64,000 nucleotides of DNA from an uncultured bacterium (GCA_938028835.1 CALIMJ010000013.1:34381-98380); one strand, 5' to 3'. Shown: positions 1,097-47,893, counted from the stretch's first letter. The notes: generated by a model not told the origin, from the letters alone. A program made the numbers and translations.

Positions 1097-1945
1097 TCAC
1101 ATCGGCCACGGGCTTGCGGACAGCGCCTGAACCGCAAGCCCCGCGTTCCGGAACGCCTGTCGAAGCTGCCAGCGCAGCTGGCGCTCCGCCTCCGCCCGGT
1201 ATAGGGGGAGGACCGGGACGGCGACACGGAGGCTGACACCCGCCGGCGACAGCTCCACCAGCGGGTCTACCTCCACAGGACCGGTCACCCAGTCCGGGTG
1301 CGCCGCAGCCCAAGTACCCGCCACCCGCTGCGCCACCGCCGCCGCAGCGTCCAGGTCCGCGTCCGCGGGCAGGGTAGCCAGCACCACCGCGCGCAGGGAG
1401 CCACGGCTGAGGTTCGCGAAGCGGGTGATCTCGCCGTTGGGGATGGTCACCAGCTCGCCCGTGTAACGGCGGATCTGGGTGTTCCGCAAAGTGATCTGCT
1501 CCACCTGGCCCAGCTCTCCTCCCACGGAGACCACGTCACCCACCTGCAGACCGCCGTCCAGCAACAGGAAGAACCCGGAGAAGCTGTCCCGCACCAGGGT
1601 CTGGGCGCCCAGCCCCACCGCCAGCCCCGCGATCCCGGCGCTGGCGAGGACCGCGGTCGCGTCCACGTGGACCTGCCGCAGGATCATCACCAGCGCCACG
1701 AAGTACACGGTGTAGCGCACCACGCTGTGGGCCACGGAGGCCAGGGTCCGGGCGCGGGCCAGCCGGGCCTCGTAGTCCCGGACTCCCGGCAGCGGCTGGA
1801 GCAGGCGGTCCAGCACGCGGCGCGAAAGGGACACGACCGCCGCGGCTGCGGCCACGATGACCGCCACGGCCACCAGGGTCCGCACGGCGGCAGCCAGCTG
1901 GGCCGGAGACGCCAGCTCGCGAAGGACTTCGCGCCCGAACTCCAC
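1097..1945 (-). CDS. mscS: small-conductance mechanosensitive channel (MscS family)
   Basis: 282 aa with N-terminal TM helices. Contains the MscS core ...GIAGLAVGLGAQTLVRDSFSGFFLLLDGGLQVGDVVSVGGELGQVEQITLRNTQIRRYTGELVTIPNGEI. Confidence 0.85.
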   Translation of the reverse strand: MEFGREVLRELASPAQLAAAVRTLVAVAVIVAAAAAVVSLSRRVLDRLLQPLPGVRDYEARLARARTLASVAHSVVRYTVYFVALVMILRQVHVDATAVLASAGIAGLAVGLGAQTLVRDSFSGFFLLLDGGLQVGDVVSVGGELGQVEQITLRNTQIRRYTGELVTIPNGEITRFANLSRGSLRAVVLATLPADADLDAAAAVAQRVAGTWAAAHPDWVTGPVEVDPLVELSPAGVSLRVAVPVLPLYRAEAERQLRWQLRQAFRNAGLAVQALSASPWPM

Positions 1946-1946
1946 G

Positions 1947-11512: not shown

Positions 11513-12487
11513 CTACTGCAGCACCCGTCGGACCGCGCGGGCGATCCGATCCTCGTCGGGGAACGCGAGCTTCTCTAGGTTGCGGGCGTAGGGGGCGGGC
11601 ACGTCCTCCCCGGTGACCCGCTCCACCGGTGCGTCCAGGTCGTCGAAGCACCGTTCGTAGATGCCCGCGGCGACCTCCGCGGCCGCGCCGAAAAGCGGCC
11701 ACTGCTCCTGGACCACCACCGCCCGGTGCGTGCGGCGCACCGACTCGGCCACGGTGTCCATGTCCAGGGGGCGCAGGCTGCGCAGGTCTAGCACCTCGCA
11801 CTCCACGCCTTCGCGGGCGAGCTCGTCCGCGGCCGCGAGGGCGAGGTGGAGCATACGGCTGTACGCCACCACGGTGACGTGCCGGCCCCGGCGGACGACC
11901 GTGGCTTGGCCGAAGGGGACGGTATCGTCCCCCTCCGGCACGGGCCCCTTGATCCCGTACAGGGCCGCGTGCTCGAGGAAGATCACGGGGTCCTCCGAGC
12001 GAAGGGCGGTGCGCAGCAAGCCCCTGGCGTCCGCAGGGGTGGCGGGAGCCACCACCCGCAGGCCGGGGAAGTGGCCGTAGAACGACTCGAGGGACTGGGA
12101 GTGCTGGGCGGACAGCTGCACCCCCGCTCCGTTGGGGCCGCGGATGACCAGCGGCACGGACACCTGCCCGCCGGAGAAGTAGCGGACCTTGGCGGCGTTC
12201 TGCAGGATCTGGTCCGCGGCCGGGAGGGAGAAGTTCCAGGTCATGACCTCCACCACCGGCCGCAGGCCCAGCATGGCCATGCCGATGGCGGCGCCGATGA
12301 ACCCCAGCTCCGAGATGGGGGTATCGATGACCCGCTTGGGTCCGTAACGCTCCAACAGCCCCTCGGTGATCCGGAAGGTCCCCTGGTAGACGCCGATGTC
12401 CTCGCCCAGGAGCAGCACGCGCGGGTCGCGATCCATCTCCTCCACCAGGGTGGACCGCAGGGCTTCCCGGTAGGTCATCTCCGTCAT
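11513..12487 (-). CDS. 2-oxoacid dehydrogenase E1 beta subunit
   Basis: Start at MTEMTYREALRSTLVEEMDRDPRVLLLGEDIG (residue 191 of track ORF 11513..13057). This is a transketolase-like beta subunit. Confidence 0.9.
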   Translation of the reverse strand: MTEMTYREALRSTLVEEMDRDPRVLLLGEDIGVYQGTFRITEGLLERYGPKRVIDTPISELGFIGAAIGMAMLGLRPVVEVMTWNFSLPAADQILQNAAKVRYFSGGQVSVPLVIRGPNGAGVQLSAQHSQSLESFYGHFPGLRVVAPATPADARGLLRTALRSEDPVIFLEHAALYGIKGPVPEGDDTVPFGQATVVRRGRHVTVVAYSRMLHLALAAADELAREGVECEVLDLRSLRPLDMDTVAESVRRTHRAVVVQEQWPLFGAAAEVAAGIYERCFDDLDAPVERVTGEDVPAPYARNLEKLAFPDEDRIARAVRRVLQ

Positions 12488-35481: not shown

Positions 35482-36153
35482 ATGGCGGCCCGGATTCTGG
35501 TGGTGGACGACGAGCCACCCCTGGTGGACGCGATCCGGTTCGCCCTCCAACGGGAGGGCCACGAGGTGGCGGAGGCCTTGGATGGCCTGCGGGCCCTGGA
35601 GCTGGCGCGGTCCGAGCGGTTCGACCTGATCCTCCTGGACGTCATGCTGCCGGGCATGAGCGGGTTCGAGCTGTGCCGGATCCTGCGGCAGGACAGCGAC
35701 GTCCCCATCCTGCTGCTCACGGCCCGGTCAGAGGAGACCGACCGCGTGGTGGGGTTGGATCTGGGCGCGGACGACTACGTCACCAAGCCCTTCTCCATGC
35801 GCGAGCTCTTGGCCCGGGTGCGGGCGGCCCTGCGGCGGCGGGGGATCCAGCAGACGGCTCCCCTGATGGTGGGCGACCTGGTGTTGGATCCCGCGCGCCA
35901 CGAGGTGCGTTGCGGCGGCCGATCCTTGCCCTTGAGCCCTAAGGAGTACGACCTGCTGGAAGTGCTGCTGCGCAACGCGGGACGCGTGCTCAGTCGCGGC
36001 CAGCTGCTGGAGCGGGTGTGGGGCTACGACTATGAGGGGGACGAGCGTACCGTGGACGTGCACCTCTCGTGGCTGCGGCGCAAGCTGCGGGAGGCGGGCT
36101 CCACGGTGCGCATCGAGACCGTGCGGGGCGTCGGGTACCGTCTGGAACCCTGA
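35482..36153 (+). CDS. OmpR/PhoB-family response regulator
   Basis: 223 aa. ILVVDDE...DLILLDVMLPGMSG...ADDYVTKPFS... and wHTH ...TVDVHLSWLRRKL...ETVRGVGYRL. Confidence 0.9.
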   Translation: MAARILVVDDEPPLVDAIRFALQREGHEVAEALDGLRALELARSERFDLILLDVMLPGMSGFELCRILRQDSDVPILLLTARSEETDRVVGLDLGADDYVTKPFSMRELLARVRAALRRRGIQQTAPLMVGDLVLDPARHEVRCGGRSLPLSPKEYDLLEVLLRNAGRVLSRGQLLERVWGYDYEGDERTVDVHLSWLRRKLREAGSTVRIETVRGVGYRLEP

Positions 36154-36189
36154 CCCGCCCCGTACAGACCACCGACGCTGGACGGCTCC

Positions 36190-37488
36190 GTGAGGCCCTG
36201 GGCATGGTGGGTCCTGGCGGCGGCGGCCGGTGCCGCGGCTGCGTGGCGCTTTGTGCTGGCGGACGGCTGGGCCGCGGCCTTCGGGTGGCTGGCCTGCGCC
36301 GCCCTCCTGGCCGCGGGGTGGCGGGAGTGGTCCTGGCGGCGGAGCCTGCAGGCACTCGCGCAGAAACTCCGCGACCCGCGGGACTTGAACTGGGGAGGGG
36401 CCTCCGGAGGCGAGCTGGCCGCGGCGGTGGAGTCGGTGCTGCGTGGCCTGCGGGAGGACCTGGAACGCGCTCGGGCCCAGGAGAGCCACCTCCGGGAGCT
36501 AGTGGAGGCGCTGCCGTGGGGTCTCGTGGAGCTGGACCACCGACGCCGCGCGGTGTGGGTGAACCCTCCCGCGGCGGCCCTGCTAGGCGTGCCGCGCGAG
36601 CAGGCGGGGGAGATGTCCGCGGTGGCCCTGTTTCGGCGGCACGAGGTGGACGAGCTGCTGGACCGTGCCGAGCGGGTGGGCGAGGCCGTGCGGGACCTGG
36701 AGCTGGGCGGCGTACTGCAGGTGGTGGCCCGCCGGCTGCCCGCGGGCGGGTTCCTGCTTCTCGTGCGCGACGTAACGCGGGATCGGCGGGCGGAGGCGGT
36801 GCGGCGCGACTTCGTGGCCAACGTCTCCCACGAGCTGCGCACCCCCCTTGCGTCGGTGCGGGCCATGGCGGAGGCGTTGCGGGACGGGGGACTGGAAGAC
36901 CCGCGGCTGGCGGCCCGGTTCCTGGGTCAGATGCTCCAGGAGGTGGACCGTATGAGCCGGCTGGTGAACGACCTGCTGGACCTGTCGGCCCTGGAGGCCG
37001 GGGTGGTGCGGCTGCGGTGGGAAGACCTGCAGGCGCACGAGCTGCTGGAGGCCGTGGCGCGGCGGTACGGTCCCGCGGCCGCACGGAAGGGAGTGACCCT
37101 GCTGGTCCAGCCCGAAAGGGCGCAGGTGCGGGGCGACCGCGACCGTTTGGAGCAGGCCCTCGGGAACCTGGTGGACAACGCGATCAAGTACACACCGTCG
37201 GGCGGTCGGGTGGTGCTGAAGACAGAGCTGCGCGACGGCGAGGTGTACCTGGTGGTGGAGGACACCGGCCCGGGGATCCCCCCCGAGCACCTCCCGCGGG
37301 TGTTCGAGCGCTTCTACCGCGCCGACCCCTCCCGCAGTCGAGCGGAGGGAGGCACGGGGTTGGGGCTAGCCATCACCAAGCACATCGCGGTGGCCCACGG
37401 GGGCCGGGTGGAGGCGGCCAACCGTCCGACCGGCGGTGCCCGGCTAGCCGTGGTCCTGCCCGCTGGCGGCGGAACGCCGGAACGGTAG
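36190..37488 (+). CDS. sensor histidine kinase (PhoR-like: TM, PAS-like, HisKA, HATPase_c)
   Basis: H-box FVANVSHELRTPL, N-box DNAIKYTP, G-boxes DTGPGIP and GGTGLGLAI. Confidence 0.85.
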   Translation: MRPWAWWVLAAAAGAAAAWRFVLADGWAAAFGWLACAALLAAGWREWSWRRSLQALAQKLRDPRDLNWGGASGGELAAAVESVLRGLREDLERARAQESHLRELVEALPWGLVELDHRRRAVWVNPPAAALLGVPREQAGEMSAVALFRRHEVDELLDRAERVGEAVRDLELGGVLQVVARRLPAGGFLLLVRDVTRDRRAEAVRRDFVANVSHELRTPLASVRAMAEALRDGGLEDPRLAARFLGQMLQEVDRMSRLVNDLLDLSALEAGVVRLRWEDLQAHELLEAVARRYGPAAARKGVTLLVQPERAQVRGDRDRLEQALGNLVDNAIKYTPSGGRVVLKTELRDGEVYLVVEDTGPGIPPEHLPRVFERFYRADPSRSRAEGGTGLGLAITKHIAVAHGGRVEAANRPTGGARLAVVLPAGGGTPER

Positions 37489-37493
37489 CCCGC

Positions 37494-39110
37494 TCAGTCA
37501 GACCGTCCGCCCACGCTGGAAAGTACACCCGGCCCGAAGACCCGCTGGTAGACGTCCTCCGCGTGGCTGGTGGGCAGCGGCTCCCCCTCCAGCACCCGAT
37601 AGGTGCGCCGGCCCCGGGCGTCCCGCTCCGCCCGCAGGAACAGCACGGAGTCAGATCGCCGGGCGCGGAAGCGGTCCGCCAGTTCGAAGAAGTGGGTAAC
37701 GAAGAGCACGCGGACTCCCGCTTCCACGAACGCGTCCAGGACCTGGCAGGCGATCTCCGACCCCTCGCGCTCGTGGGTGGCGGAGAAGGACTCGTTGCAC
37801 AGGAACACCGAGCGCGGCGTGGCGAGGTCCACGAGGGCTCGCATGCGGCGGAGTTCCTCCACGAACTTGCCGGACTCCAGGCGTGGGTCTTCCTCCCGCT
37901 TGAAGTGGGTGAGCAGCCCCTCGCACAGACTCACGGAGAAGGACTGGGCGGGCACGAACAGCCCCGCCTGGGCCATCAGCCAGGCGATCCCCAGGCTCCG
38001 GAGGAAGGTGGTCTTGCCCCCGGAGTTGGGCCCGGTGATCAGGATGAGGCGCTTGCCGCTCGCCTCCAGGTCGTTGGGGACCACAGTCCGATCGGTGGCC
38101 AGGGCCAGCACGGGGTCGTAGAGGCCCCGGGCGGAAAGGGTGTAGCCTGCGGGGTGCACGGAGGGCAGGCAGGTGGGCAATCCACGCCGGCGAAGCTGAG
38201 TGTGCAGCCGCAGGGCGCCCACGTAGAAGGCCAGTTCAGCCCGCAGGCAGGAGAAGAAATCCCGGACGTGGTCGGCGGCTTCCCCCACGGCCGTGGCCGC
38301 TGAGGCCAAGGCCCGGTCGCGGAGGGCCTCGAGGGCCTTGACCCCCGCCTCGTCACGGGGGGAGAGCTCGAAGGTGTAGCCGTCCCGGCTCCGGCGGAAC
38401 CACGTCTTCCACCGCTCCAGCCAGCTCCGGCGCTGCTGGGGGGGTCGGTGCAGGAGGAAGTCCGTGGGCTTGTTGGCAGGCCCCGGACGCGCGCTCCAGA
38501 GGAGGCCGTGGGGCAGCCTCAACACGTCCAGGCAGGCCCGCACCTCGCCGAGGTAGGACTCCTCCAGGTCGCGGCGCAGCGCCGCGAAGAAGCGCGTCCA
38601 GCCCTCGCTGGGGAACCGGGATGCGTGGAGATCCGCGACAGACTTCAGTCTCCGGAGGGAACCCACCAGCGCCGCGAGGGTGCTGACGGACTCGCGCAGG
38701 ACCCAGTCGGGGTAGCGGGCGAGGACGCCCAGATACCGGCCTTTGAGCTGGTCTAGAGCCTCCACGCTGACGTCGTACAGCTCGAGGACGGCGTCCGGGT
38801 TTTCGAGGCAGTCCGCCAGCACAGCCTGGCGGTAGGCCACCACCGAAGGGTCTGCGCACGTGGCCTCCAGCAGGAGCCTCCGGCTGACCTCGAAAACCAG
38901 GTCGTCCTCCCCGGCCATGGCTTCCAGAAGCGGTAAGAGCCCGAGGTCCTGGACCAGGTCGTCCGCGTTCGGAGGGAGTCCCGCGGAAGGGTCGAACCCC
39001 GCGGGTGGTACGGTGCGGTGCCCGGCACGCAGGCCGGCTCGGGCCGTGGCCGCCTGCAGGGCCCAGCGCCAGTCGAAGTCCCGGTCGGGGTACAGCAGGT
39101 GCGGCTTCAT
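37494..39110 (-). CDS. MutS-related ABC-type ATPase (core plus domain V only; no mismatch-binding or Smr domain), paralogue B
   Basis: Start at MKPHLLYPDRDF (residue 262 of the track ORF); its ATG overlaps the upstream stop as ATGA. Walker A is ITGPNSGGKTTFLRS, the Walker-B-like motif is SVFLCNESFSATHEREG (N-E instead of D-E), and VTHFFEL follows. Confidence 0.75.
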   Translation of the reverse strand: MKPHLLYPDRDFDWRWALQAATARAGLRAGHRTVPPAGFDPSAGLPPNADDLVQDLGLLPLLEAMAGEDDLVFEVSRRLLLEATCADPSVVAYRQAVLADCLENPDAVLELYDVSVEALDQLKGRYLGVLARYPDWVLRESVSTLAALVGSLRRLKSVADLHASRFPSEGWTRFFAALRRDLEESYLGEVRACLDVLRLPHGLLWSARPGPANKPTDFLLHRPPQQRRSWLERWKTWFRRSRDGYTFELSPRDEAGVKALEALRDRALASAATAVGEAADHVRDFFSCLRAELAFYVGALRLHTQLRRRGLPTCLPSVHPAGYTLSARGLYDPVLALATDRTVVPNDLEASGKRLILITGPNSGGKTTFLRSLGIAWLMAQAGLFVPAQSFSVSLCEGLLTHFKREEDPRLESGKFVEELRRMRALVDLATPRSVFLCNESFSATHEREGSEIACQVLDAFVEAGVRVLFVTHFFELADRFRARRSDSVLFLRAERDARGRRTYRVLEGEPLPTSHAEDVYQRVFGPGVLSSVGGRSD

Positions 39111-40639
39111 GGGGTGAAGCGCTGGCGGACCTCCCGGTAGGTGAGCCGGTACCTGCGGGCCAGGGCCTCCGCGTAGGCGCGTCCGTCCGCCGGCTGACGC
39201 ACCACGCGGAAGGTGCGCGCTTCGGGCTGGCCGGGTGGCACCGTGGCTACCAGGCTCACGGTTTTCTCGTTCAGGGAGGCCAGCTCGTCCAGGAACGTCA
39301 CCCACACGCACAGGCAGCCGAGGTCCAAAAGCTGTCCCAGCAGCCGTCGGCCCAGGGTACGCGCGTCGCGCAGGGCGGTAGAGGAAAGGATCTCGTTGAC
39401 GATCACCACACTGCTGGGGGTCGCAGCCTGGAGGACCTCCCGGATCCTCAGGAGGTCGTCCTCCAGTTTGCCGCGCATGTCCAGCGTGTGCTCCCCGCGG
39501 GGAAAGTGGGTGAGGACCTGGTCCGGCACCGGAAGCTGAGCCTCCCGGCCAGGGATCGGACAACCGAGGGACGCCAAGTAGAAGGCCTGGCCCACCGCGC
39601 GGGCGAACGTGGTCTTCCCCCCCTGGTTGGGGCCGGTCACCACCAGGGCGCGCTCCGGAGGGCGGAAGAGGAAGTCGTTGAGAATGGGGAGCCGGCCGTC
39701 CGCCACCAGCTTCGCGGCCAGCGCCAGGTCGAAGCAATCCTGCACGAACGCCTCCGTACCGTTGGGCACCAATCTGGGTAGACAGAAGGGCAGGCCCGCC
39801 GCCCGGAGGGGAGCGACGAAGTCCAGGTAGCCCAGGTAGAACTGCGCCTCCCGGTCGAAGGCATCGATCCACCGTGCCGGCAGTTCCCCGCACGCTCTTC
39901 GGAAGTCCGCCACGCGAAGGAACAGGTCCGGGTTCAGGTGGGAAACCCCTTCCAGGATCTGCGCTTCGACAGGGTTCAGCTCCGCGGACCCCCGGAACTC
40001 GAAGCGGTACGGGGTGTCGTGGGCCTGTCGGAACCGCTCAAAGGTGGACCGCACCACCTCCGCGTAGTCCGGCTCCCCGCGGTAGGGACGGACGGTGACC
40101 CGCAGGCCCTGGACGAGCACCGCAAAGCGCAGGGACGACAGCTCCGCCTTCAGCTGTTCGGCGGCTTCCGCCAGGCTGCGGAAGGCGGGGGAATCCGCGT
40201 ACGCGGCCAGCCGGTGGCGGAAGCGGAGGAGGCCACGGCTGTGGAGTGGACAGGAGGACAGGCCCTCCAGCAGCGCCAGGACTGCCTGCGCGTACAGGGA
40301 TGCCGCGTCCAGGAACCAGCGGTCTTTCTCCACTGCGTAGAACGCTTTCTCCGCGCGGCGGAGGTGGGCCCGCACCGCGCGGAGCGCCGAGCTGAACGTG
40401 CGGACTGTCTCCGACACGAGAGGTTCTTGGAAGTCGCGGAAGACCTCGTGGCGGAAGGAGACTGCCTCGGGTTCCCGCAGCGGCGTGTAGAAGACCGGTT
40501 GCAGACCGTACTCCTCCCGGCCCGCCGTGATGGCCTGCACGACCCGGTCCAGCCCCAGGTCCTGCAGGCACGCGGGCGGGTGCTCCGGCAGCGGAGGAGG
40601 CTGGCCCGTGGGGAACAGGAGGCTCGAGAGCTCGTCCAT
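39107..40639 (-). CDS. MutS-related ABC-type ATPase, paralogue A
   Basis: Start at MDELSSLLFPTG (residue 74 of the track ORF); its ATG overlaps the USP stop as ATGA. Walker A is VTGPNQGGKTTFARA, with VVIVNEILSSTALRDA (N-E) and VTFLDEL. Confidence 0.75.
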   Translation of the reverse strand: MDELSSLLFPTGQPPPLPEHPPACLQDLGLDRVVQAITAGREEYGLQPVFYTPLREPEAVSFRHEVFRDFQEPLVSETVRTFSSALRAVRAHLRRAEKAFYAVEKDRWFLDAASLYAQAVLALLEGLSSCPLHSRGLLRFRHRLAAYADSPAFRSLAEAAEQLKAELSSLRFAVLVQGLRVTVRPYRGEPDYAEVVRSTFERFRQAHDTPYRFEFRGSAELNPVEAQILEGVSHLNPDLFLRVADFRRACGELPARWIDAFDREAQFYLGYLDFVAPLRAAGLPFCLPRLVPNGTEAFVQDCFDLALAAKLVADGRLPILNDFLFRPPERALVVTGPNQGGKTTFARAVGQAFYLASLGCPIPGREAQLPVPDQVLTHFPRGEHTLDMRGKLEDDLLRIREVLQAATPSSVVIVNEILSSTALRDARTLGRRLLGQLLDLGCLCVWVTFLDELASLNEKTVSLVATVPPGQPEARTFRVVRQPADGRAYAEALARRYRLTYREVRQRFTP

Positions 40640-41058
40640 CAGTGCACCACCATCACGGGGCAGTGGGCGTACCGGAGCACCCGCTCGGAGACCGAGCCCA
40701 GCATCCAGCGCTGCACCGGGGTGAGCCCGCGTCGGCCCAGGACGATGAGGTCGAAGGCCTCCTCGCGGGCCACCCGCACCAGGACCTCTGCGGGGTGCCC
40801 CACCTCGGTGCGCAGGGTCACCGGAACCCCCGCCCTGCGAGCCTGGTTCCGGGCCCACCGGAAGGCCTCCGCCAGCGGCCCACGGGACTGAGCCACGGCT
40901 GCGTCCACCTCCCCCTGTAGCTCCGCGAACTCCGGCGGGCGCACTACCGCCAGCGCGACCACGTCCGCGCGGTACCGGCTGGCCAGGTCCAGAGCGGCCA
41001 GCAGCGCCTTTCGGGCCGCCGGGGAGCCGTCGTAGCCGACCAGCACGCGCCGGAACAT
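40639..41058 (-). CDS. universal stress protein (UspA family)
   Basis: 139 aa. MFRRVLVGYDGSPAARKAL...DLIVLGRRGLTPVQRWMLGSVSERVLRYAHCPVMVV. The ATG overlaps the antiporter stop (ATGA). Confidence 0.85.
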   Translation of the reverse strand: MFRRVLVGYDGSPAARKALLAALDLASRYRADVVALAVVRPPEFAELQGEVDAAVAQSRGPLAEAFRWARNQARRAGVPVTLRTEVGHPAEVLVRVAREEAFDLIVLGRRGLTPVQRWMLGSVSERVLRYAHCPVMVVH

Positions 41059-42245
41059 CAGTCCCCTCCGGGTACGAGGGCCGGCTCCGGAGCCGGCTGC
41101 TGCACGTGGTGGGCCGGCAGGAAGAACCGGTTGGCGATCCAGGTGGGCACCACCGCGCTGGCCACCACCGTGGTCACGAGGAACGAGTACTGCGCCGGGT
41201 CGATGATGCCATGGGTGAGGCCGTACAGGGAGGAGATGGTCCCGAAGGTGAGTCCGGTGGACATCAGCAGGGTCGTGTACATGGCCTCGTCCCGCGCGTA
41301 CCGGTACGCCCGGGTCAAGGGGAACACGCCCACAAACTTGCTCAGTGCTTTGGCCGCGAAGAGCACGGTGAACGTCCCCAGGCCGCCCGCCACGACGGAG
41401 AGCTGGACCAGCAGGCCCGCGCGGATGAAGTAGAAGGGGGTGAGCAGGCCGAAGGTGAGGCTGCGCAGACGTCGGACCAGCTCGTGGTGGCGGCCCACCG
41501 TCCCCGCCAGGGCCATGCCCAACACGTACGCGGGGAGGACCGCTTCGGACCCCGACCACGCCGCGAGGGCACCGAGGGCGAACAGCACCCCCAGGAGGAA
41601 TTTCACCTCCAGCTCGGAGGTCCGGCCGCCAAACTGGTGCAGCACAGGCCGGGCGGCGCGGGCGGAACCCCACAGGGCGACGATCAGAACCACGACGAAG
41701 ACCGCGGTCCGCCAGCTGAAGGGGGCGAACAGGAGCCCCAGAGCCACCACCGTCCCCAGGTCGTTGATGAAGCACGCCGCCAGGATGACCTTCCCGTAGT
41801 CCGTGCGGTTGATCCCCAGTTCCAGCAGCACCGCATACACCACCGCCACGGACGTGGTGGACAGCGCGACCCCTGCGAGCCAGCTGGCCTGGGGAGCCCA
41901 CCCCAGGACCTGCCGGGCGGCCCACGCGGCGCCCAAAAAGGGAGCCAGGAACCCGGCCAGGCCCATCACGGTGGCCTCCTTCCAGCGCCTGCGGAAGGCG
42001 TCTGGGTCGAGCTCGGCTCCCGCGAGGAACGTCAGGACCACCGATCCGGTGCCCGCGAGGAAGACCACCCAGCCGTCCCGGACTCCGGGGAACGAGGCGG
42101 GGCCGAACACTCCCATCATCAGCTGGGCCAGGATCCCCACGAGGATTTCGGTGAGGGCCACCGAGACCCGCAGCCAGATCCCGAGAAGGGCGGCCAGCAG
42201 GGCGAGGCCCAGCCAGACCGCCGCCGTCCACCAGACGCTTTCCAT
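41058..42245 (-). CDS. cation:proton antiporter (CPA2/NapA-Kef type)
   Basis: 395 aa and polytopic. ...GAELD..., ...FINDLGTV... SD GGAGGTGAGG lies upstream of ATG 42245. Confidence 0.85.
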   Translation of the reverse strand: MESVWWTAAVWLGLALLAALLGIWLRVSVALTEILVGILAQLMMGVFGPASFPGVRDGWVVFLAGTGSVVLTFLAGAELDPDAFRRRWKEATVMGLAGFLAPFLGAAWAARQVLGWAPQASWLAGVALSTTSVAVVYAVLLELGINRTDYGKVILAACFINDLGTVVALGLLFAPFSWRTAVFVVVLIVALWGSARAARPVLHQFGGRTSELEVKFLLGVLFALGALAAWSGSEAVLPAYVLGMALAGTVGRHHELVRRLRSLTFGLLTPFYFIRAGLLVQLSVVAGGLGTFTVLFAAKALSKFVGVFPLTRAYRYARDEAMYTTLLMSTGLTFGTISSLYGLTHGIIDPAQYSFLVTTVVASAVVPTWIANRFFLPAHHVQQPAPEPALVPGGD

Positions 42246-42353
42246 GGCCTCACCTCCACCGGGGTCGGGGCCAAAACGAAATGGCCCCTACCCGACTTGG
42301 GTAGGAGCCATCAGCCTCCGTGGGAGGCGGTTCGGGCGGGCTCCATCGCCCGC
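42246..42353 (-). promoter_or_regulatory. structured 5' leader, copy 2: conserved 20-mer hairpin, second hairpin, terminator-like hairpin
   Basis: Minus-strand read: GCGGGCGATGGAGCCCGCCC-GAACC-GCCTCCcacGGAGGC-TGATG-GCTCCTACCCaagtcGGGTAGGGGCC-ATTTCGTTTT-GGCCCC...GGAGGTGAGGCC-ATG. Homologous to the leader at 45218..45302 (see findings). Confidence 0.55.
42273..42309 (-). terminator. intrinsic-terminator-like hairpin inside the antiporter leader, also 3' of the MFS gene
   Basis: 11-bp stem GGCTCCTACCC/GGGTAGGGGCC (one G-U pair), loop AAGTC, tail ATTTCGTTTT. An alternative pairing GGGGCC(atttcgtttt)GGCCCC shares the 3' arm. Confidence 0.55.
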
Positions 42354-42357
42354 GCGC

Positions 42358-42387
42358 ATTATCCACCAGGGTCCCCGGGGCCGTCAA
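42358..42387 (-). promoter_or_regulatory. sigmaA-like promoter TTGACG-18-GATAAT
   Basis: Read on the minus strand between the MFS stop (42419) and the leader hairpins. The conserved 20-mer starts 4 nt after the -10. Confidence 0.5.
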
Positions 42388-42418
42388 TGTCGTCGGCGCT
42401 CGCCGGAGCTTGTCCACC

Positions 42419-43612
42419 TCATGGCCGCCGCAGGGGCGACCGCGCGGCGGACCAGCCGAACAACCCGGCGGCAGACAGCTGCGTGGCCACTGCGAACAGA
42501 ACCAGGTAGCTCGGGTGCGCGTCGTAGAGGAGCCCCATCAGGGCGCTGCCCGCGAACCAGGCGACGCCGTACACCGTCTGGAACAGCCCGAAAGCGGAGG
42601 CCCGGCGGTCCGGGGGGACCATGCGGGCCACCGCCGCGCGCAGCACCGACTCCTGCAGGCCCACGCCCATCCCCCAGAGGACGATCCCGGCCACGGCGCC
42701 CGCAGGGCCGCCGAAGATGGCGAGGGGCGCGAATGCCGCGGTGGCCGCGGTTCCCAGAGCCAGGGTCCGGATACCGTAGCGGTCGAACCAACGCCCCAGG
42801 ACTAGGGCCGCGACAGCGTCCGTGGCCATGGCGAGCGCGTACAGCACGGGCACGGCTGTCGTTGGGAGGACGGCGTTCCGGGCGAAGTGGTACGCCAGCA
42901 GAGGGAAGTCCACGAACCCCGCCGCCACGAGCCCTGCTCCCAGGAGGTAGAGGCCGAGCGCGCGGCGCAGTCGGAAGTCCAGAGGGCTGGAAGTGTCCTC
43001 CAGCTGCGACGGTTGCGGGAACCGGGTACGGGCCCAGGCCACCGTCAGCAGGCAGAGGGCCGCCGGAAATGCCAGGGCCGCGAAACCCCACCGCAGACTG
43101 CCGCCCGCGCCGAGCACCGCGGCCACCAGCAGCGGGCCGGCCACAGCTCCCACTTGGTCCAGAGCCTCATGCAGGCCGAAGGCCCACCCAGCCCCCACCC
43201 GGCTTGCCGCGTACGAAAGCATCGCGTCCCGGGGTGGGGTTCGCACGGCTTTGCCCGCGCGCTCGGCCACCACGAGCGCGGCGGCAGCCTCCCACCGGCC
43301 CACCACGGCCAGGAGGGGGACGGACAGGAGGTTCACCGCGTACCCTGCCGCGGTGAGGTCCCAGAAGCGGCGGGTCCGGTCCGCCAGCCGACCGGACACC
43401 AGGCGCAGCCCGTAGCCCACGAGCTCCCCCAGCCCGGCCACGAAGCCGACCGCGGTGGCGGAAGCACCCAGGGCCAGCAGATAGGGGCCGAGGATGCTGC
43501 GGGCACCCTCGTACGTGGCGTCTGCCAAAAGACTTACCACGCCCATCAGCACCACGAAGCGGGTCGCTTCGCGGGCGGCGTCTTGCCGGGCGCTGAGGGT
43601 CTGGGCCTTCAT
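42419..43612 (-). CDS. MFS transporter
   Basis: 397 aa with ~12 TM segments and loop motif SGRLADRTRR. The ATG overlaps the upstream stop by 4 nt. Confidence 0.85.
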   Translation of the reverse strand: MKAQTLSARQDAAREATRFVVLMGVVSLLADATYEGARSILGPYLLALGASATAVGFVAGLGELVGYGLRLVSGRLADRTRRFWDLTAAGYAVNLLSVPLLAVVGRWEAAAALVVAERAGKAVRTPPRDAMLSYAASRVGAGWAFGLHEALDQVGAVAGPLLVAAVLGAGGSLRWGFAALAFPAALCLLTVAWARTRFPQPSQLEDTSSPLDFRLRRALGLYLLGAGLVAAGFVDFPLLAYHFARNAVLPTTAVPVLYALAMATDAVAALVLGRWFDRYGIRTLALGTAATAAFAPLAIFGGPAGAVAGIVLWGMGVGLQESVLRAAVARMVPPDRRASAFGLFQTVYGVAWFAGSALMGLLYDAHPSYLVLFAVATQLSAAGLFGWSAARSPLRRP

Positions 43613-44373
43613 CGTCCTGTGGGCGACCGGATGGCTCGCGGCCGCACGTCCGGAGCCGACCGGACCTCGTTGGGGTCGCGGCCGCTGAGCACCTCCAGCG
43701 CCCGCGTCCAGCTGGTGCCCTGCTCCGGGGTCAGTCCCTCGTGGCGGAAGCGGTAGTCGTGCTTGCGGACGAGTTCGGAAAGGTCAGCCTCTAGCTGCGC
43801 CAGGGCCTGTCGCTGGGCCTCCAGAAGGCGCGTGAGGTGTTCCGGGGACCTGGCCACCGACGCGGCGAGAGCCAGGTGGGCAAGACACAGCGGCGCCGGG
43901 CCAGCAAGGGCCTGCCGCACCTCGGGGTCTGCAGAGTGCTCCAGGAGGCTTGCCACGTACACTTCCTCCATGCGCTGACGGTGCAGGCAGGCGGGACACG
44001 GGGCAGCAGGGAGCAGGGCGTGCTGGAGGGCGGACCCCGCATCCCGTCGGCGTCTGGCCTGGCCCCGGAGCGCCGCGTTCACACGGTCCAGCAGGGCTCC
44101 CACGAGGTCCCGGTACACGATGGCGACCCCCAGGACCGGGTTGCGCTGCGCCGGGAGAGCCCACGCGTGGTGCGGGCAGAACCCCCAGCTGGCCCGCACC
44201 TCCTGTCGCGTGTTGGGATCGTTCACGCGCTCGTACAGGAAGTTATCGAGGAACCGCTGCACCGCGTGGGTGGCGAGCCGGCAGACGGGGCAGCCGCCGG
44301 ACGCCAGGGCCTCCCGGACTCTGGCGAAGACCAGGTCGTCCCGCCGCACGGCGCCGTGGGGCTCACCGCGCAC
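43609..44373 (-). CDS. uncharacterised protein with duplicated CPxC...CxxH motifs
   Basis: 254 aa. GGCPVCRLATHAV...FLYERVNDPNTRQEVRASWGFCPHHAWAL...APCPACLHRQRMEE...PLCLAHL. It resembles an uncharacterised CPxC/GFCxxH family seen in Firmicutes; I believe it is a catalogued DUF but cannot verify that here. Confidence 0.6.
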   Translation of the reverse strand: MRGEPHGAVRRDDLVFARVREALASGGCPVCRLATHAVQRFLDNFLYERVNDPNTRQEVRASWGFCPHHAWALPAQRNPVLGVAIVYRDLVGALLDRVNAALRGQARRRRDAGSALQHALLPAAPCPACLHRQRMEEVYVASLLEHSADPEVRQALAGPAPLCLAHLALAASVARSPEHLTRLLEAQRQALAQLEADLSELVRKHDYRFRHEGLTPEQGTSWTRALEVLSGRDPNEVRSAPDVRPRAIRSPTGR

Positions 44374-44818
44374 GGCACACGCCCCCGAGCAACCGTGCGA
44401 GCCAGCTCCGGACGCGCCGCGCCCTCCTCAGGTCCGGTGCCGGCCCGGAGGGGACCTCCTCCGGACCCGCGGGTTGGAGGGCCAGCCCGCGGGGCCGCTG
44501 TCTCCAGTAGGCCAAAGATCGGCGAGCCTGTTCCACGGAGGCCTGGAGGCCCACCAGATTCATACGCAGCCCGCGCACGGCCTCGTCCGCCAGGTACGCG
44601 CGGTGCCGCAAAGTCGCGAGTTCGGCCCGTGCGGCTCCGAGGGCCCGCAGGGCGTCCTCCGGCGGAGGCCAGAGGTGCACCGCCGCGCCGTAGCCCAGGA
44701 GGATTCGCAGGCCCTCTTCCTGGGTCCAACCCTCTGCCCGCAGGATCGCGTCCACCTCCCGGGCTGTCTCGTCGTCCAGGGGGACGTGCACCGTGACCAG
44801 GACGTCGTGCTCGTCCAT
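44363..44818 (-). CDS. ribbon-helix-helix-like N-terminal domain plus coiled-coil protein (paralogue 2)
   Basis: 151 aa with SD AGGAGGAA upstream. VLVTVHVPLDDETAREVDAILRAEGWTQEEGLRILLGYGAA fits the beta-alpha-alpha RHH (CopG/Arc) pattern, followed by a heptad-rich region. Confidence 0.5.
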   Translation of the reverse strand: MDEHDVLVTVHVPLDDETAREVDAILRAEGWTQEEGLRILLGYGAAVHLWPPPEDALRALGAARAELATLRHRAYLADEAVRGLRMNLVGLQASVEQARRSLAYWRQRPRGLALQPAGPEEVPSGPAPDLRRARRVRSWLARLLGGVCRAR

Positions 44819-44827
44819 GGATTCCTC

Positions 44828-45217
44828 CTACTCTTCTTGGAGGGTCTCTGAGGGCTTCCGCTGCCGGTTCCGTAGAGCGAACAGGGCTCGGCGCAACCGC
44901 GTGTACTCCGCGCTGAGCGCGTTCACCCGCTCACGGAGCACGTCCAGCTCCCTCTCGCGGGCCAGGGTGCGGGCGCGCATGGACAACGCGTGGGCAAGGG
45001 CTTCCCGGCGCTGCAGCTCCAGCTGTGCCGGGGCCCCGTGGGGCTCACCCGACGCGGTCAGTTCGTGCCAGGCTTCCTGGTCAGCCGCGTACCGGCGGGC
45101 CCCCTCGGCGATCAGCCACGCGAGGCCGACCTCCAGGGGCCAGAAGCCGAGAGAGGACAGGGCCTCCGCCAGCTGCGCCAGGTCCTCGCCCGTAAGGGTC
45201 AGGGTCATGTGCCGCAT
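44828..45217 (-). CDS. ribbon-helix-helix-like N-terminal domain plus coiled-coil protein (paralogue 1)
   Basis: Start taken at MRHMTLTLTGEDLAQLAEALSSLGFWPLEVGLAWLIAEGARRY (ATG 45217, or ATG 45208). The track start at TTG 45337 coincides with a -35 box and would place a terminator hairpin inside the CDS. Confidence 0.5.
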   Translation of the reverse strand: MRHMTLTLTGEDLAQLAEALSSLGFWPLEVGLAWLIAEGARRYAADQEAWHELTASGEPHGAPAQLELQRREALAHALSMRARTLARERELDVLRERVNALSAEYTRLRRALFALRNRQRKPSETLQEE

Positions 45218-45302
45218 CCTGAACAAAAAGCTCCTACTGGCAACCCAGTAGGAGCTATCAACCCGGCTAACCGGGTACGCAAGGGCGAGCCCCATCGCCC
45301 GC
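45218..45302 (-). promoter_or_regulatory. structured 5' leader, copy 1: conserved 20-mer hairpin, second hairpin, terminator-like hairpin
   Basis: Minus-strand read: GCGGGCGATGGGGCTCGCCC-TTGCGT-ACCCGGttagCCGGGT-TGATA-GCTCCTACTGGgttgCCAGTAGGAGC-TTTTTGTTCAGG-ATG. Confidence 0.55.
45221..45256 (-). terminator. intrinsic-terminator-like hairpin immediately 5' of the RHH gene start
   Basis: Perfect 12-bp stem AGCTCCTACTGG/CCAGTAGGAGCT, loop GTTG, tail TTTTGTTC. The 3' arm contains the only SD-like AGGAG. Confidence 0.55.
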
Positions 45303-45308
45303 ACGTCC

Positions 45309-45337
45309 AAGATAAGGGGGCCGACGATCCCCGTCAA
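45309..45337 (-). promoter_or_regulatory. sigmaA-like promoter TTGACG-17-TATCTT
   Basis: Read on the minus strand. The conserved 20-mer starts 6 nt after the -10. It sits back-to-back with the + strand MerR-type promoter 35 nt away. Confidence 0.5.
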
Positions 45338-45372
45338 CCGGCCGTGGGGATCGGGCGGCTTGGGAGCGGCGG

Positions 45373-45404
45373 TTGACCTTCCAGTACGGTGGAAGGTTTA
45401 CCGT
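45373..45404 (+). promoter_or_regulatory. MerR-family (CueR-like) operator-promoter
   Basis: TTGACCTTCCAGTACGGTGGAAGGTTTACCGT. The -35 is TTGACC, a 20-nt spacer contains the inverted repeat ACCTTCCA-N6-TGGAAGGT, and the -10-like box is TACCGT. It is nearly superimposable on the E. coli copA promoter core TTGACCTTCC..GGAAGGTTTAACC as I remember it. Confidence 0.6.
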
Positions 45405-45426
45405 CGTCCGGGAGGAGGTGGTGAAG

Positions 45427-45649
45427 GTGACTTCGAACCCGCAGCGGCTGCACCTCAAGCTGGGTGGGATGCACTGCTCCCTCTGTGTGGAGTCCGTGCG
45501 CAAGGCGGTCCTGCGACTCCCCGGGGTACGGTCCGTGCACGTGTCCATGGCGCATGAGGAGGCCCTGGTAGAGTACGAGCCGGACCGCGTGTCTGCCGAC
45601 GCCATGGTGCTCGTCCGGGAAGGCGGGCAACCCGAATCTGGTTCCATGA
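45427..45649 (+). pseudogene. copZ-like HMA metallochaperone gene with an apparent 1-nt frame disruption near its 3' end
   Basis: SD GGAGGAGG, then GTG. VTSNPQRLHLKLGGMHCSLCVESVRKAVLRLPGVRSVHVSMAHEEALVEYEPDRVSADAMVLVR... is a complete ferredoxin-like HMA (the same MHCxxC variant as the copZ at 53160). The current frame then has no stop for ~1 kb (track ORF 45373..46626). Shifting +1 at the GGG run 45617-45619 gives ...KAGNPNLVP-stop at 45647-45649. Confidence 0.55.
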
Positions 45650-45868
45650 ACCTCTCGGTCGTCCGGAGGGTAGTGCCCTTCGACCTCCCACGTGGCCGCG
45701 TCCCTCGGCCGTTGCGGGCGTGTCGCGAGCGGGGGAGGACATGCCTCGGGCGGGCTTCCTCTCTGCCATCGTGGCGACCTCCCACAGCCGTGCCGCCATC
45801 CTGTACGGTCCGCGGCGAGGGTGGTGCGGATCTCGGGTACCGACGGTCGTCGTGCTACAGTCAGCACA

Positions 45869-47893
45869 GTGGGAGTCCAAGAACCCTCCGCATCCCTGGC
45901 GGGCGGGCCCCATGCGCACGCTGGCGGTCGCGCGGGGCCGGCAAAACTTGCCAGAGCCAGCGGCGTCTGTGTTCGGTACGTGGCCGCGGGGCTTTCCGGA
46001 GTCCTGCTGGCCCTCAGCTTCCCGCATCCCGGCTGGTGGCCCCTGGCCTGGGTCGCACTCGTGCCCCTGCTCCTGGCCGTCCGGGGGCTGCAACCGGCAG
46101 CCGCGGCGGGGGTGGCTCTCGCATTCGGCGTGGTGTTCTATGGGCTGCTGCTCACGTGGCTCAACAGCCTGGGTGTGGCCGCGTACCTTACGGTGGTGGC
46201 GGTGAGCGTGGGGTACTCCGCCCTGTTCGGCGCGCTGGCCAGTTTCGGGGCCCAGGGCCGAGGGGACATTCGGTTCCTCTTGGCGGCCTCTCTGGCGTGG
46301 GTGGTGGTGGAGTGGCTGCGCAGCCTGGGTGTGGCCTCGTTCCCGTGGGGGCTCGTGGGGTACTCCCAGTGGACGAACCTGCCCGTCCTGCAGCTCGCGT
46401 CCGTGGGCGGTGTGTACCTCGTTTCCGCGGCGGTGGTGGCGGCGAACGGGGGACTTGCGCTCCTCCTGCTCCGCAGACCCTCGGGGCTGGTGCCCCTGCT
46501 CCTGGTGGCCCTGGCGTGGGGGTGGGGGAACGGCAGACTTGCGCGCCTGGAAGCGGAGGCGCAACCCTGGATGCCGGTGGCCGCGATCCAACCGAACCTG
46601 GCGCAGCAGCGCAAGCTCGATCCTGACCACGCCCCCCAGACCCAAAAGACCCTGCTGCAGCTCACCCGGGAGGCGCTGCGTTCGGGAGCGCGGCTGGTGG
46701 TGTGGCCCGAGCACTACTGGCCGGCTCCCCTCCTCCGCGATGGGCGACTCGATCCCCTGATTCAGGCCGCGGTGCCCGAGGGCGTGGCGCTCCTAGCCAC
46801 TGGGGAGATCGACGGCCGGCGTAACTCAGCCGTCGTGGTGGACCGCGGACGCGTGAGGGGGCGGCACGACAAGGTGCGGCTCGTGCCCCTCGGGGAATGG
46901 TGGGCGGATCCCGGAGCAGGCTATCAGGCCGTGTGGGCTCCAGAGGGGCCCGTAGGTGTGCTCCTGTGTTACGAGGTCGTGTATGCCGCCTCCGCGCGAG
47001 CCCTGGTGACCGACGGAGCCCGCTACCTGATCCACTCTACCGAGGAGGGCTGGTTCGGGGAGTCGGCGGGACCCGTGCAGCACCTGGGGTTCGCGGTCGT
47101 GCGCGCGGTGGAGCTGAACCGGGACGTGGTGCGGGCGGCCAGTATCGGGATCTCCGCCATCATTGAACGCACTGGGCGCATCCAGGCACGGCTTCCGCAG
47201 GTGACGCAGGGATGGGTCGCCGGGCACATCGAGCCCCGATCCGACCTCACGCCCTACGCCCGTTGGGGAGACCTGTGGGTGTGGGTAGCCGCCGGGGTCC
47301 TGGGTGGCATGGTGCTGCCGGCTGCGCTCCCGTGGATGCGCCGGGAGGTGGTGGTCCCGTTTCTCCTGCCCGCCACGGCCGCGATGTTGGGAGGCGCCCT
47401 CGGGCTCGGGGGAGTGTTCACGGGCCTACTCCTGGGTGCGGTCGCCCTCGCGACCTGCCCGGATCCGCGGAGGATCGGGCTTGTGCGGGCGCGGCGGCTC
47501 ACGAGCCTTTTGACCGCCGCGGGGTTTTCTGGAATGGCGGTGTGGCTCGTACAGGCGGGGTTTGCGGCTCAGGGGATCCCGCTGTTCTTCCAGACGCCTG
47601 GGTGGGATCGTCTCGTGGCGAACCTTGTGTTCGGAGCCGCGGAGGAGCTGTGGCTGCGGGGCGTGATCGTCGCTTCCCTTCCCACCTCTCCCCTCGCGGC
47701 CTTCGTCCTCTCCCAGGTGGGGAGCCTGGTCCTATACCTGGGGGCGAGGGGGGAGGTGGTGGCCTGGCACCTCCTGAGCGGCGCAACGTTTTTCCTGATC
47801 CGGCGCGTGACGGGGAGCCTTTGGGGACCCATGCTAGCACGGGGCGTCGGGGACGCGGCCCTGTGGGCCCTGCTGGGCCGGTGGCCGTTTTAG
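45869..47893 (+). CDS. lnt: apolipoprotein N-acyltransferase fused to a C-terminal CPBP (CAAX-protease-like) membrane domain
   Basis: N-terminal TM bundle LSFPHPGWWPLAWVALVPLL. CN-hydrolase triad context VVWPE / HDKVRLVP / VGVLLCYE. The C-terminal ~190 aa have TM helices with the CPBP motif GAAEELWLRG and a later AWHLLSG. The start is uncertain (GTG 45869 or GTG 45980). Confidence 0.75.
   Translation: MGVQEPSASLAGGPHAHAGGRAGPAKLARASGVCVRYVAAGLSGVLLALSFPHPGWWPLAWVALVPLLLAVRGLQPAAAAGVALAFGVVFYGLLLTWLNSLGVAAYLTVVAVSVGYSALFGALASFGAQGRGDIRFLLAASLAWVVVEWLRSLGVASFPWGLVGYSQWTNLPVLQLASVGGVYLVSAAVVAANGGLALLLLRRPSGLVPLLLVALAWGWGNGRLARLEAEAQPWMPVAAIQPNLAQQRKLDPDHAPQTQKTLLQLTREALRSGARLVVWPEHYWPAPLLRDGRLDPLIQAAVPEGVALLATGEIDGRRNSAVVVDRGRVRGRHDKVRLVPLGEWWADPGAGYQAVWAPEGPVGVLLCYEVVYAASARALVTDGARYLIHSTEEGWFGESAGPVQHLGFAVVRAVELNRDVVRAASIGISAIIERTGRIQARLPQVTQGWVAGHIEPRSDLTPYARWGDLWVWVAAGVLGGMVLPAALPWMRREVVVPFLLPATAAMLGGALGLGGVFTGLLLGAVALATCPDPRRIGLVRARRLTSLLTAAGFSGMAVWLVQAGFAAQGIPLFFQTPGWDRLVANLVFGAAEELWLRGVIVASLPTSPLAAFVLSQVGSLVLYLGARGEVVAWHLLSGATFFLIRRVTGSLWGPMLARGVGDAALWALLGRWPF

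Follow-up and report, generated by a model that had tools for sequence, protein, structure and literature searches.

Two adjacent gene units with fluoride riboswitch leaders form a probable fluoride-stress regulon in an uncultured Sysuimicrobiota bacterium

Background

The fluoride riboswitch class (RF01734, the crcB motif) has a standard ON-switch design that has been documented in several studies (PMC2864571, PMC11077080). In the transcriptional riboswitches of Bacillus cereus crcB and of Thermotoga petrophila (PDB 4ENC), the aptamer is built from helices P1 and P3, a pseudoknot, the sequences GAUGG and UGAU and an A-U linchpin, and the 5′ arm of the terminator is also the 3′ strand of the pseudoknot; the A40-U48 linchpin and U41 are required for switching (PMC11077080). 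Exporters are the most frequent group among genes linked to the riboswitch and Na+/H+ antiporters the next most common (PMC11139923), and the motif also occurs upstream of mutS-like genes, often with overlapping terminators (Weinberg et al. 2010, PMC2864571). Described here is a locus at positions 37494-45337 of a 64,000-nucleotide stretch of DNA from an uncultured bacterium (GCA_938028835.1 CALIMJ010000013.1:34381-98380; the whole stretch is called the window below), in which two leaders of this design precede eight genes. With a probability of about 85%, these genes constitute a fluoride-stress regulon composed of two adjacent transcription units, each gated by a fluoride ON riboswitch.

Relative to the B. 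cereus and T. petrophila riboswitches, which have the same helices, pseudoknot, GAUGG, UGAU, linchpin A-U and expression platform, the locus differs in carrying two copies in tandem units, in the non-consensus sequence and sub-threshold score of the operon-1 copy, and in having downstream genes that are not crcB. A multi-gene fluoride resistance operon under riboswitch control has been demonstrated in Enterobacter cloacae (the FRM operon, ppaC-uspA-eno-gpmA-crcB-orf5249; PMC5533749), and the present locus resembles it as a riboswitch-led set of genes that includes a universal stress protein (USP). The FRM operon, however, has a CrcB exporter and fluoride-sensitive enzymes, whereas the module in the window has a predicted CPA2 antiporter, MutS_V ATPases, a transporter of the major facilitator superfamily (MFS), a DUF6062 protein and two small proteins, with no CrcB within 64 kb. 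Operon 2 repeats a published association, in which antiporter and MutS-like genes follow the motif and its overlapping terminator and which is also seen in the cultured Desulfosoma caldarium (L037; loci from other genomes are given L numbers). Neither the regulatory device nor the kinds of gene in operon 2 are new; what is new is this instance, in an uncultured phylum. The riboswitch link to the first operon's cassette (small protein 1, small protein 2, DUF6062, MFS) was not found in the searchable literature, a scope that does not extend to the gene lists of Baker et al. 2012.

Organization of the locus

The window has a G+C content of about 70%. The two leaders consist of the following elements.

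45309-45337, minus strand: promoter P1, sigma-70-like, TTGACG-17-TATCTT, ending right before aptamer 1
45242-45308, minus strand: fluoride riboswitch aptamer 1 in the operon-1 leader, with a variant joining strand (RF01734, 28.4 bits)
45220-45256, minus strand: terminator 1, a 12-bp hairpin followed by UUUUUGUU, overlapping the 3′ pseudoknot strand of aptamer 1
42358-42387, minus strand: promoter P2, sigma-70-like, TTGACG-18-GATAAT, directly upstream of aptamer 2
42295-42359, minus strand: fluoride riboswitch aptamer 2 in the operon-2 leader, canonical (RF01734, 54.1 bits)
42270-42312, minus strand: terminator 2, a 14-bp hairpin with a U-rich tail, overlapping GAUGGCUCCUAC of aptamer 2

They accompany eight open reading frames (ORFs), all on the minus strand and all head to tail, that span 37494-45208.

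44828-45208, minus strand: g1, small protein 1, 126 amino acids, no Pfam match
44363-44818, minus strand: g2, small protein 2, 151 amino acids, no Pfam match
43609-44373, minus strand: g3, DUF6062 protein, 254 amino acids, Pfam PF19538 at 7e-16
42419-43612, minus strand: g4, MFS transporter, 397 amino acids, Pfam MFS_1 at 8.6e-34
41058-42245, minus strand: g5, predicted NapA-like CPA2-type cation/H+ antiporter, 395 amino acids, Na_H_Exchanger at 4.5e-37
40639-41058, minus strand: g6, universal stress protein, 139 amino acids, Usp at 6e-36
39107-40639, minus strand: g7, MutS-domain-V-only ATPase a, 510 amino acids, MutS_V at 4.9e-16
37494-39110, minus strand: g8, MutS-domain-V-only ATPase b, 538 amino acids, MutS_V at 2.4e-22

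Operon 1 comprises g1-g4 (the two small proteins, DUF6062 and MFS) and operon 2 comprises g5-g8 (the antiporter, USP and the MutS_V pair), with a gap of 173 nt between the operons (g4 to g5).

The two fluoride riboswitch leaders

Both leaders run in the order promoter, aptamer, overlapping terminator, and they are 74% identical over 204 columns. Exactly two sigma-70-like sites, promoters P1 and P2, occur in 37000-45800 against 0.1 expected by chance, and each lies directly upstream of a shared element, the conserved 20-mer GCGGGCGAUGG(A/G)GC(C/U)CGCC. A preliminary description of this DNA had proposed homologous promoter and leader elements with a 20-mer at about +1 of both promoters, and on these points it holds. 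The 20-mer corresponds to helix P1 and the 5′ pseudoknot strand of the RF01734 aptamer. Aptamer 2 is the sole above-threshold match in a whole-window Rfam scan (E 3.2e-12; the gathering score of RF01734 is 34 bits), and aptamer 1 is the only credible match when the g1 leader is scanned permissively with Rfam (E 1.3e-5 in 1 kb).

In each leader, helix P1 has 4 of 4 pairs, the pseudoknot that joins the P1 loop to the 3′ tail has 6 of 6, and helix P3 is 5-6 bp long. Both leaders also have GAUGG, UGAU and the U of CUCCUAC, the conserved nucleotides of the ligand site and the linchpin, together with the A40-U48 linchpin and U41. The joining strand of aptamer 2 is GAACC. The terminator hairpins have predicted energies of -23.0 kcal/mol (45256-45229, z -4.7) and -25.7 kcal/mol (42312-42280, z -3.8); in both cases the 5′ arm of the hairpin is the 3′ strand of the aptamer and a U-run follows the hairpin. 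Both leaders have the standard fluoride ON-switch layout.

Twenty-five distinct aptamers from the window and related loci, collected with an nhmmer profile, regular expressions and Rfam, were compared. All 25 keep a 4-bp helix P1, 6 of 6 pseudoknot pairs and a P3 hairpin, of varied sequence, directly before UGAU. Pairs 5 and 6 of the pseudoknot and pair 3 of P1 show standard-pair covariation; pairs 1, 2 and 4 of the pseudoknot were imposed by the search pattern, which leaves only pairs 3, 5 and 6 as free evidence from the pseudoknot. Leaders before antiporter homologs in other genomes score 42-59 bits against RF01734, and leaders before g1 homologs score 37.7 bits in L004, 41.1 in L013, 41.7 in L018, 41.2 in L019, 34.2 in L021, 35.7 in L030 and 40.8 in L035.

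Judged from sequence, both leaders would bind fluoride and be induced by it. RNA polymerase would start a few nucleotides before each aptamer. With fluoride absent, the strand GAU(G/A)GCUCCUAC would pair downstream into the 12-14-bp terminator hairpin with its U-run, and transcription would stop close to 45220 and 42270. Fluoride, bound as a Mg-F cluster, would cause this strand to be locked instead into the A-U linchpin and the pseudoknot of GG(A/G)GC(C/U) with (G/A)GCUCC, so that the terminator could not form and the genes would be transcribed. Read-through from operon 1 would meet riboswitch 2, which would leave operon 2 fluoride-gated from either promoter.

Conservation of the module

The closest relatives of g3 are from uncultured hot-spring bacteria of Candidatus Sysuimicrobiota, once called CSP1-3; one of them is Ca. 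Tepidifontimicrobium thermophilum, at 83% (PMC11604079). The source organism is an uncultured Sysuimicrobiota (CSP1-3) bacterium. Contigs with g3 homologs were found by means of a 10-sequence alignment, and the fetched loci were searched with g1-g8 protein queries and the aptamer profile. Module order is conserved in L001-L005, L010 and L011. L010, L011 and L001-L003 have the two-operon arrangement in full, and L004 and L005 have the identical order without the MutS-like pair.

Elsewhere the gene sets are reshuffled yet still linked (L006, L008, L014, L015, L018, L019 and L035). Three of these loci (L008, L014 and L015) have the order riboswitch, antiporter, USP, MFS, DUF6062, with a second, divergent riboswitch ahead of small proteins 1 and 2; the two units are convergent in L018 and L019, and the MutS-like pair lies downstream of DUF6062 in L035. 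Pieces of the module stand behind five riboswitch-like copies within 10 kb of L006 (6330-16138), where the riboswitch-led sets include small1-small2-DUF6062-Metallophos-DUF6062-NUDIX, the MutS-like pair with an enolase fragment beside it, an MFS gene with a DUF6062-like 230-residue protein, and a DnaB_C/AAA_25 ATPase. The parts of the module are thus linked in many genomes, rather than adjacent in this one only, and are reshuffled among riboswitch-controlled units. This linkage, together with a common cis-element between promoter and first gene in both units, bears out the proposal that the two operons are a co-regulated module.

Proteins of operon 1

The products of g1 and g2 are paralogs with an acidic N-terminus resembling ribbon-helix-helix (RHH) proteins, followed by a coiled coil, and g1 homologs always lie directly after a riboswitch and before g2. 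An AlphaFold model of g2 (pLDDT 73.8) has an extended segment at residues 8-14, helices at 16-29 and 33-47, a long conserved helix and a C-terminal helix; the best-conserved part is the long downstream helix, not the N-terminal strand. RHH proteins (CopG, Arc, MazE, ParD and the RHH domain of PutA) head the list of Foldseek matches to g2, none of them significant (best E 1.0), and the weak match to CopG has a TM score of 0.55-0.58 over 36 columns (E 2.2-2.3). Family models gave no assignment to the RHH class: neither g1 nor g2 has a Pfam or NCBIfam match at E <= 0.01 or a sequence match in the PDB. The net charge of residues 1-48 is -5 in g1 and -8 in g2, the N-terminal domain carries between -1 and -8 across the 17 sequences of the g1 family that were compared, and distant g2 homologs have a neutral to basic N-terminal domain, with strands such as RVRVRL. 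The likeness of g2 to CopG, Arc and MetJ lies in a predicted extended N-terminal strand followed by two helices, and the difference in the lack of a significant sequence or structure match and in the acidity of the domain in this genome. The preliminary assignment of both proteins as RHH is at most a putative one: the model is strand-helix-helix and RHH proteins lead the Foldseek list, but no match is significant, no family model fits and the N-terminal domain is strongly acidic here. An RHH topology is plausible, and any DNA binding would be putative.

The g3 protein matches PF19538 with 58.8 bits against a cut-off of 27. Its invariant residues are C28, C31, C66 and H69, C126, C129, C163 and H166, and K204, D206, R208 and E212. 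The eight Cys and His residues form two CxxC...CxxH (Cys3His) sites that are invariant in 27 sequences, and the K-D-R-E set lies within the RKxDYRF motif of DUF6062. The AlphaFold model of g3 is all-helical (pLDDT 90, pTM 0.82); a PDB structure search with this model found no relative (best E 0.64, TM below 0.25), and a sequence-profile search of the PDB gave no match. DUF6062 comprises about 5,500 clusters at 50% identity, many of its members being tandem duplications of 450-500 residues; a scan of the longer proteins for domain fusions returned tandem DUF6062 repeats only, with no foreign domain. The family is not mentioned in the searchable literature. A riboswitch is found upstream of DUF6062 in 17 of 26 species-level loci, bacterial and archaeal, and several of the remaining loci are truncated on the upstream side. 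Loci from outside Sysuimicrobiota include the following.

L016, Omnitrophota: riboswitch (54.0 bits), DUF6062
L024, Rokubacteria: riboswitch (55.1 bits), tandem DUF6062
L025, Lentisphaerae: riboswitch (56.9 bits), enolase, DUF6062
L026, uncultured bacterium: riboswitch (45.6 bits), dynamin-like GTPase, DUF6062; a second, divergent riboswitch is followed by CrcB, DUF190, antiporter and USP
L027, Thermotogae: riboswitch (42.5 bits) directly upstream of DUF6062
L029, Nitrososphaeria archaeon: riboswitch (52.4 bits) directly upstream of DUF6062

DUF6062 is a fluoride-riboswitch-linked family of bacteria and archaea. In Acidobacteria-type loci, the position where DUF6062 stands elsewhere is held by an unannotated family of about 280 residues that overlaps the MFS start (L039 5178-6014; L042 5144-6004; 35% identical). 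That this protein is a diverged DUF6062 was ruled out (hhalign probability 0.1).

The g4 protein matches MFS families only in Pfam and NCBIfam, with no CrcB or CLC domain. It belongs to a highly conserved subfamily with more than 4,958 relatives; identity across phyla is about 57-62%, and one member is fused to DUF190. DUF190 is the usual companion of CrcB. Eight MFS contexts were sampled independently of DUF6062; three of these were picked deliberately (two cultured species and the DUF190 fusion) and the others by the length of the contig, and L039 and L040 are near-identical. CrcB, DUF190, a riboswitch or the MutS_V pair lies within a few kb of the MFS gene in seven of the eight.

L037, Desulfosoma caldarium: riboswitch (46 bits), then the MutS_V pair near MFS
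L038, Armatimonadota-labelled metagenome-assembled genome: truncated DUF6062, MFS-DUF190 fusion, riboswitch-CrcB
L039 and L040, uncultured: dynamin-like GTPase, 278-residue protein, MFS, with antiporter, USP, CrcB and DUF190 nearby
L041, Ca. Roseilinea: CrcB, DUF190 and MFS in a row
L042, Bryobacteraceae: MFS with divergent antiporter, CrcB, two DUF190, AAA and dynamin
L043, uncultured: MFS with convergent CrcB and two DUF190
L036, Rhodothermus profundi: MFS without a fluoride-related neighbour

In L038 the syntenic position (1638-4104, protein P0093) is taken by an MFS protein with a C-terminal DUF190, preceded by a truncated DUF6062 (136 residues) and facing a riboswitch-controlled CrcB (53.5 bits). 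Like the known prokaryotic fluoride exporters, the Fluc/CrcB channels and the CLC-F antiporters, the g4 family is one of predicted membrane transporters repeatedly found in riboswitch, CrcB and DUF190 neighbourhoods. It differs from them in belonging to another superfamily (MFS_1) and in co-occurring with CrcB in several genomes. Because of this co-occurrence, the MFS protein need not be a simple substitute exporter, and the subfamily may carry a different substrate than CrcB. Dynamin-like GTPases directly follow fluoride riboswitches (45.6 and 42.2 bits) or stand beside CrcB/DUF190 clusters (L026 8010-9980; L039 2841-5090; L042 1-1139), and the literature examined makes no mention of them as a riboswitch-associated class.

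In the proposed model, g1-g4 would be a distinct fluoride-response unit in which the MFS protein moves fluoride or a fluoride-related solute and a cytoplasmic DUF6062 metalloprotein and two coiled-coil proteins act with it. A further step can be taken only tentatively: g1-g4 might represent an undescribed fluoride-resistance system, the MFS subfamily being a third prokaryotic family that exports fluoride or metal-fluoride and DUF6062 a metal-dependent partner or a protector against fluoride damage.

Proteins of operon 2

The g5 protein matches Na_H_Exchanger with 128.2 bits (cut-off 26.2) and structures of NapA (PDB 4bwz/5bz3) at 1e-9 to 2e-9; its score against TIGR00932, 104.6 bits, is below the subfamily cut-off of 238. 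By these matches it is classed as a predicted NapA-like CPA2 antiporter. The antiporter would serve cation and pH homeostasis and the USP a general stress role, a reasoning that draws on pH and ion homeostasis under accumulation of the weak acid HF and on a USP-containing resistance operon (PMC11139923, PMC5533749).

The g8 protein matches MutS in the PDB at 1.6e-21, with the MutS, MutS2 and MSH matches confined to residues 322-511 (314-524 for the PDB overall). Neither g7 nor g8 has the domains MutS_I to MutS_IV or any Pfam match outside domain V. Walker B is NE instead of DE in g7, g8 and every homolog (L001, L006, L010, L011 and L035), and the His of the H-loop is kept in g8 (VTHFFEL) and replaced by Phe in g7 (VTFLDEL). 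Weak matches link both proteins to KamC (NCBIfam NF052383), an enzyme reactivase of MutS_V type. The NE Walker B of all homologs and the loss of the H-loop His in g7 suggest that the two proteins form an asymmetric ATPase heterodimer, which would have some role other than mismatch repair. The genes go beyond the published mutS association in being a conserved pair of diverged ATPase-only paralogs with an NE Walker B.

Alternative explanations

Several observations weigh against the reading of the locus as a fluoride-stress regulon. Aptamer 1 falls under the gathering score, at 28.4 bits against 34, and its P1-P3 joining strand is CUUGCGU instead of the conserved AACC (xAACC), so that its ligand response is uncertain. 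Roles for g1-g4 and g7-g8 are deduced from genomic association only. The metatranscriptome material consists of the assembled contigs of two runs, from relatives about 90% identical, one of them 19 kb long, and is silent on induction and termination. No CrcB homolog or motif was found in the 64-kb window, and a crude regular-expression search of those ORFs of at least 90 residues that passed a codon-position GC filter found no CLC signature motifs. The score and joining strand of aptamer 1 would also be expected if only operon 2 were fluoride-regulated and the operon-1 leader had decayed or been re-purposed, either as a constitutive attenuator or as a variant aptamer for another ligand, and the g1 leaders of the closest relatives (L001, L010 and L011) are equally low, at 26-28 bits, with none at the gathering score. 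Against such decay, aptamer 1 retains every helix, including the P3 hairpin ACCCGG/CCGGGU and the 6-bp pseudoknot, as well as GAUGG, UGAU..CUCCU and the terminator overlap. The CUUGCGU-type variant is conserved in the closest relatives, where the P3 stem is kept while its loop varies (TTAG, TCAG, TTCG, TGGTC); the same cassette occurs in other genera with above-threshold aptamers (34.2-41.7 bits), and DUF6062 genes elsewhere stand behind canonical aptamers (42-57 bits). A decayed or re-purposed operon-1 leader is thus considered unlikely. Since its helices and key nucleotides are kept and leaders of g1 homologs in other genomes pass the Rfam threshold, aptamer 1 is read as a putative working fluoride aptamer with an unusual joining strand.

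It had also been suggested that the 20-mer could be a DNA operator, with RHH-like g1 and g2 autoregulating operon 1 and co-regulating operon 2. Helix P1 is indeed a DNA inverted repeat (GCGGGC..GCCCGC) at about +1 of both promoters, and the strand-helix-helix model of g2, the RHH repressors at the top of its Foldseek list and the basic N-terminal strand of distant g2 homologs would suit such a role. However, an operator would not be required to match a curated RNA family or to show covariation that reaches the pseudoknot and P3, and the element is also present in genomes or operons that have no g1 or g2 (L016, L024-L027, L029, L037 and L038). The strongly acidic N-terminal domains of g1 and g2, the absence of an RHH family match and a best Foldseek E of 1.0 likewise argue against DNA binding at this site. 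The operator hypothesis, which is very unlikely, was set aside in favour of the RNA aptamer on the strength of the RF01734 matches and of covariation in P1, P3 and the pseudoknot. A DNA-damage response or a mismatch-repair response, with the MutS-like proteins acting on DNA and with general salt and pH stress genes coupled to it, is even less probable. The MutS_V matches of g7 and g8 and the historical annotation of riboswitch-linked genes as mutS (PMC2864571) point in that direction, but the resemblance to MutS, MutS2 and MSH is restricted to the ATPase domain, the other MutS domains were not found, Walker B and the H-loop are altered as described above, and another MutS_V-only family, KamC, is an enzyme reactivase and not a DNA protein. 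The gene combination had been thought to match no known pathway; it is better accounted for by the fluoride-riboswitch regulon, of which the mutS-like, Na+/H+ antiporter and USP genes are published associates (PMC2864571, PMC11139923, PMC5533749).

Gene junctions and flanking sequences

The ORF check and Pfam matches agree with the earlier outline of eight minus-strand genes in two head-to-tail operons, and the tight coupling of the genes was largely described correctly. The 4-nt ATGA overlaps at 39107-39110 (g7/g8) and 43609-43612 (g3/g4) are present, and so is the 11-nt overlap of g2 and g3 at 44363-44373, which is called in homologous loci too; the ATGA overlaps claimed at 40639-40641 (g6/g7) and 41058-41060 (g5/g6) are in fact 1-nt TGATG overlaps. 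The g1 ORF was rightly recognized, with its start at 45208; the start proposed at 45337 is that of the longest TTG extension, which runs into the leader. The spacing of g1 and g2 is 9 nt and contains GGAGG. The G+C content at third codon positions is 0.85-0.92 in the eight genes, against 0.82-0.92 in three flanking genes (histidine kinase, response regulator and Lnt). There is no signal of horizontal transfer of the module, its third-position values being like those of these neighbours.

Two plus-strand genes at 35482-37488, for an OmpR-type response regulator and a PAS/HisKA histidine kinase, are convergent with g8, the stop codons being 5 nt apart; this pair also lies beside the module in L001, L004 and L038. 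Divergent from promoter P1 is an ORF with an HMA (heavy-metal-associated) domain (45373-45650, plus strand; PF00403, 1.9e-12). Its frame stays open as far as 46626, across part of the Lnt gene (45692-47893), and the ORF could be frameshifted, a remnant or a miscalled gene. Beside the fluoride cassette of L008, a prolyl-tRNA synthetase gene is preceded by a T-box-like leader (11635-11767, plus strand) that scores 43.4 bits, well short of the gathering score of 93. Two public runs, X1 and X2, are the sole ones with 96-100% of 41000-45400 and carry the label marine metagenome; hot-spring metagenomes are the source of all related sequences.

Implications

Fluoride riboswitches point directly to anti-fluoride genes, and until now an explanation has been given only for the exporters and for a small number of enzymes. 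The set of small protein 1, small protein 2, DUF6062 and MFS is a widespread fluoride-linked gene set and a real lead on new fluoride-response proteins. Two natural aptamers with different joining strands at one locus allow affinity tuning to be studied, and fluoride tolerance is relevant to organofluorine bioengineering. The "mutS" genes long listed with the fluoride riboswitch appear as a heterodimer-like, ATPase-only pair with an unusual NE Walker B. If the proposed role of g1-g4 is true, bacteria and archaea alike would make use of DUF6062, a protein with two Cys3His sites whose fold is without a solved relative.

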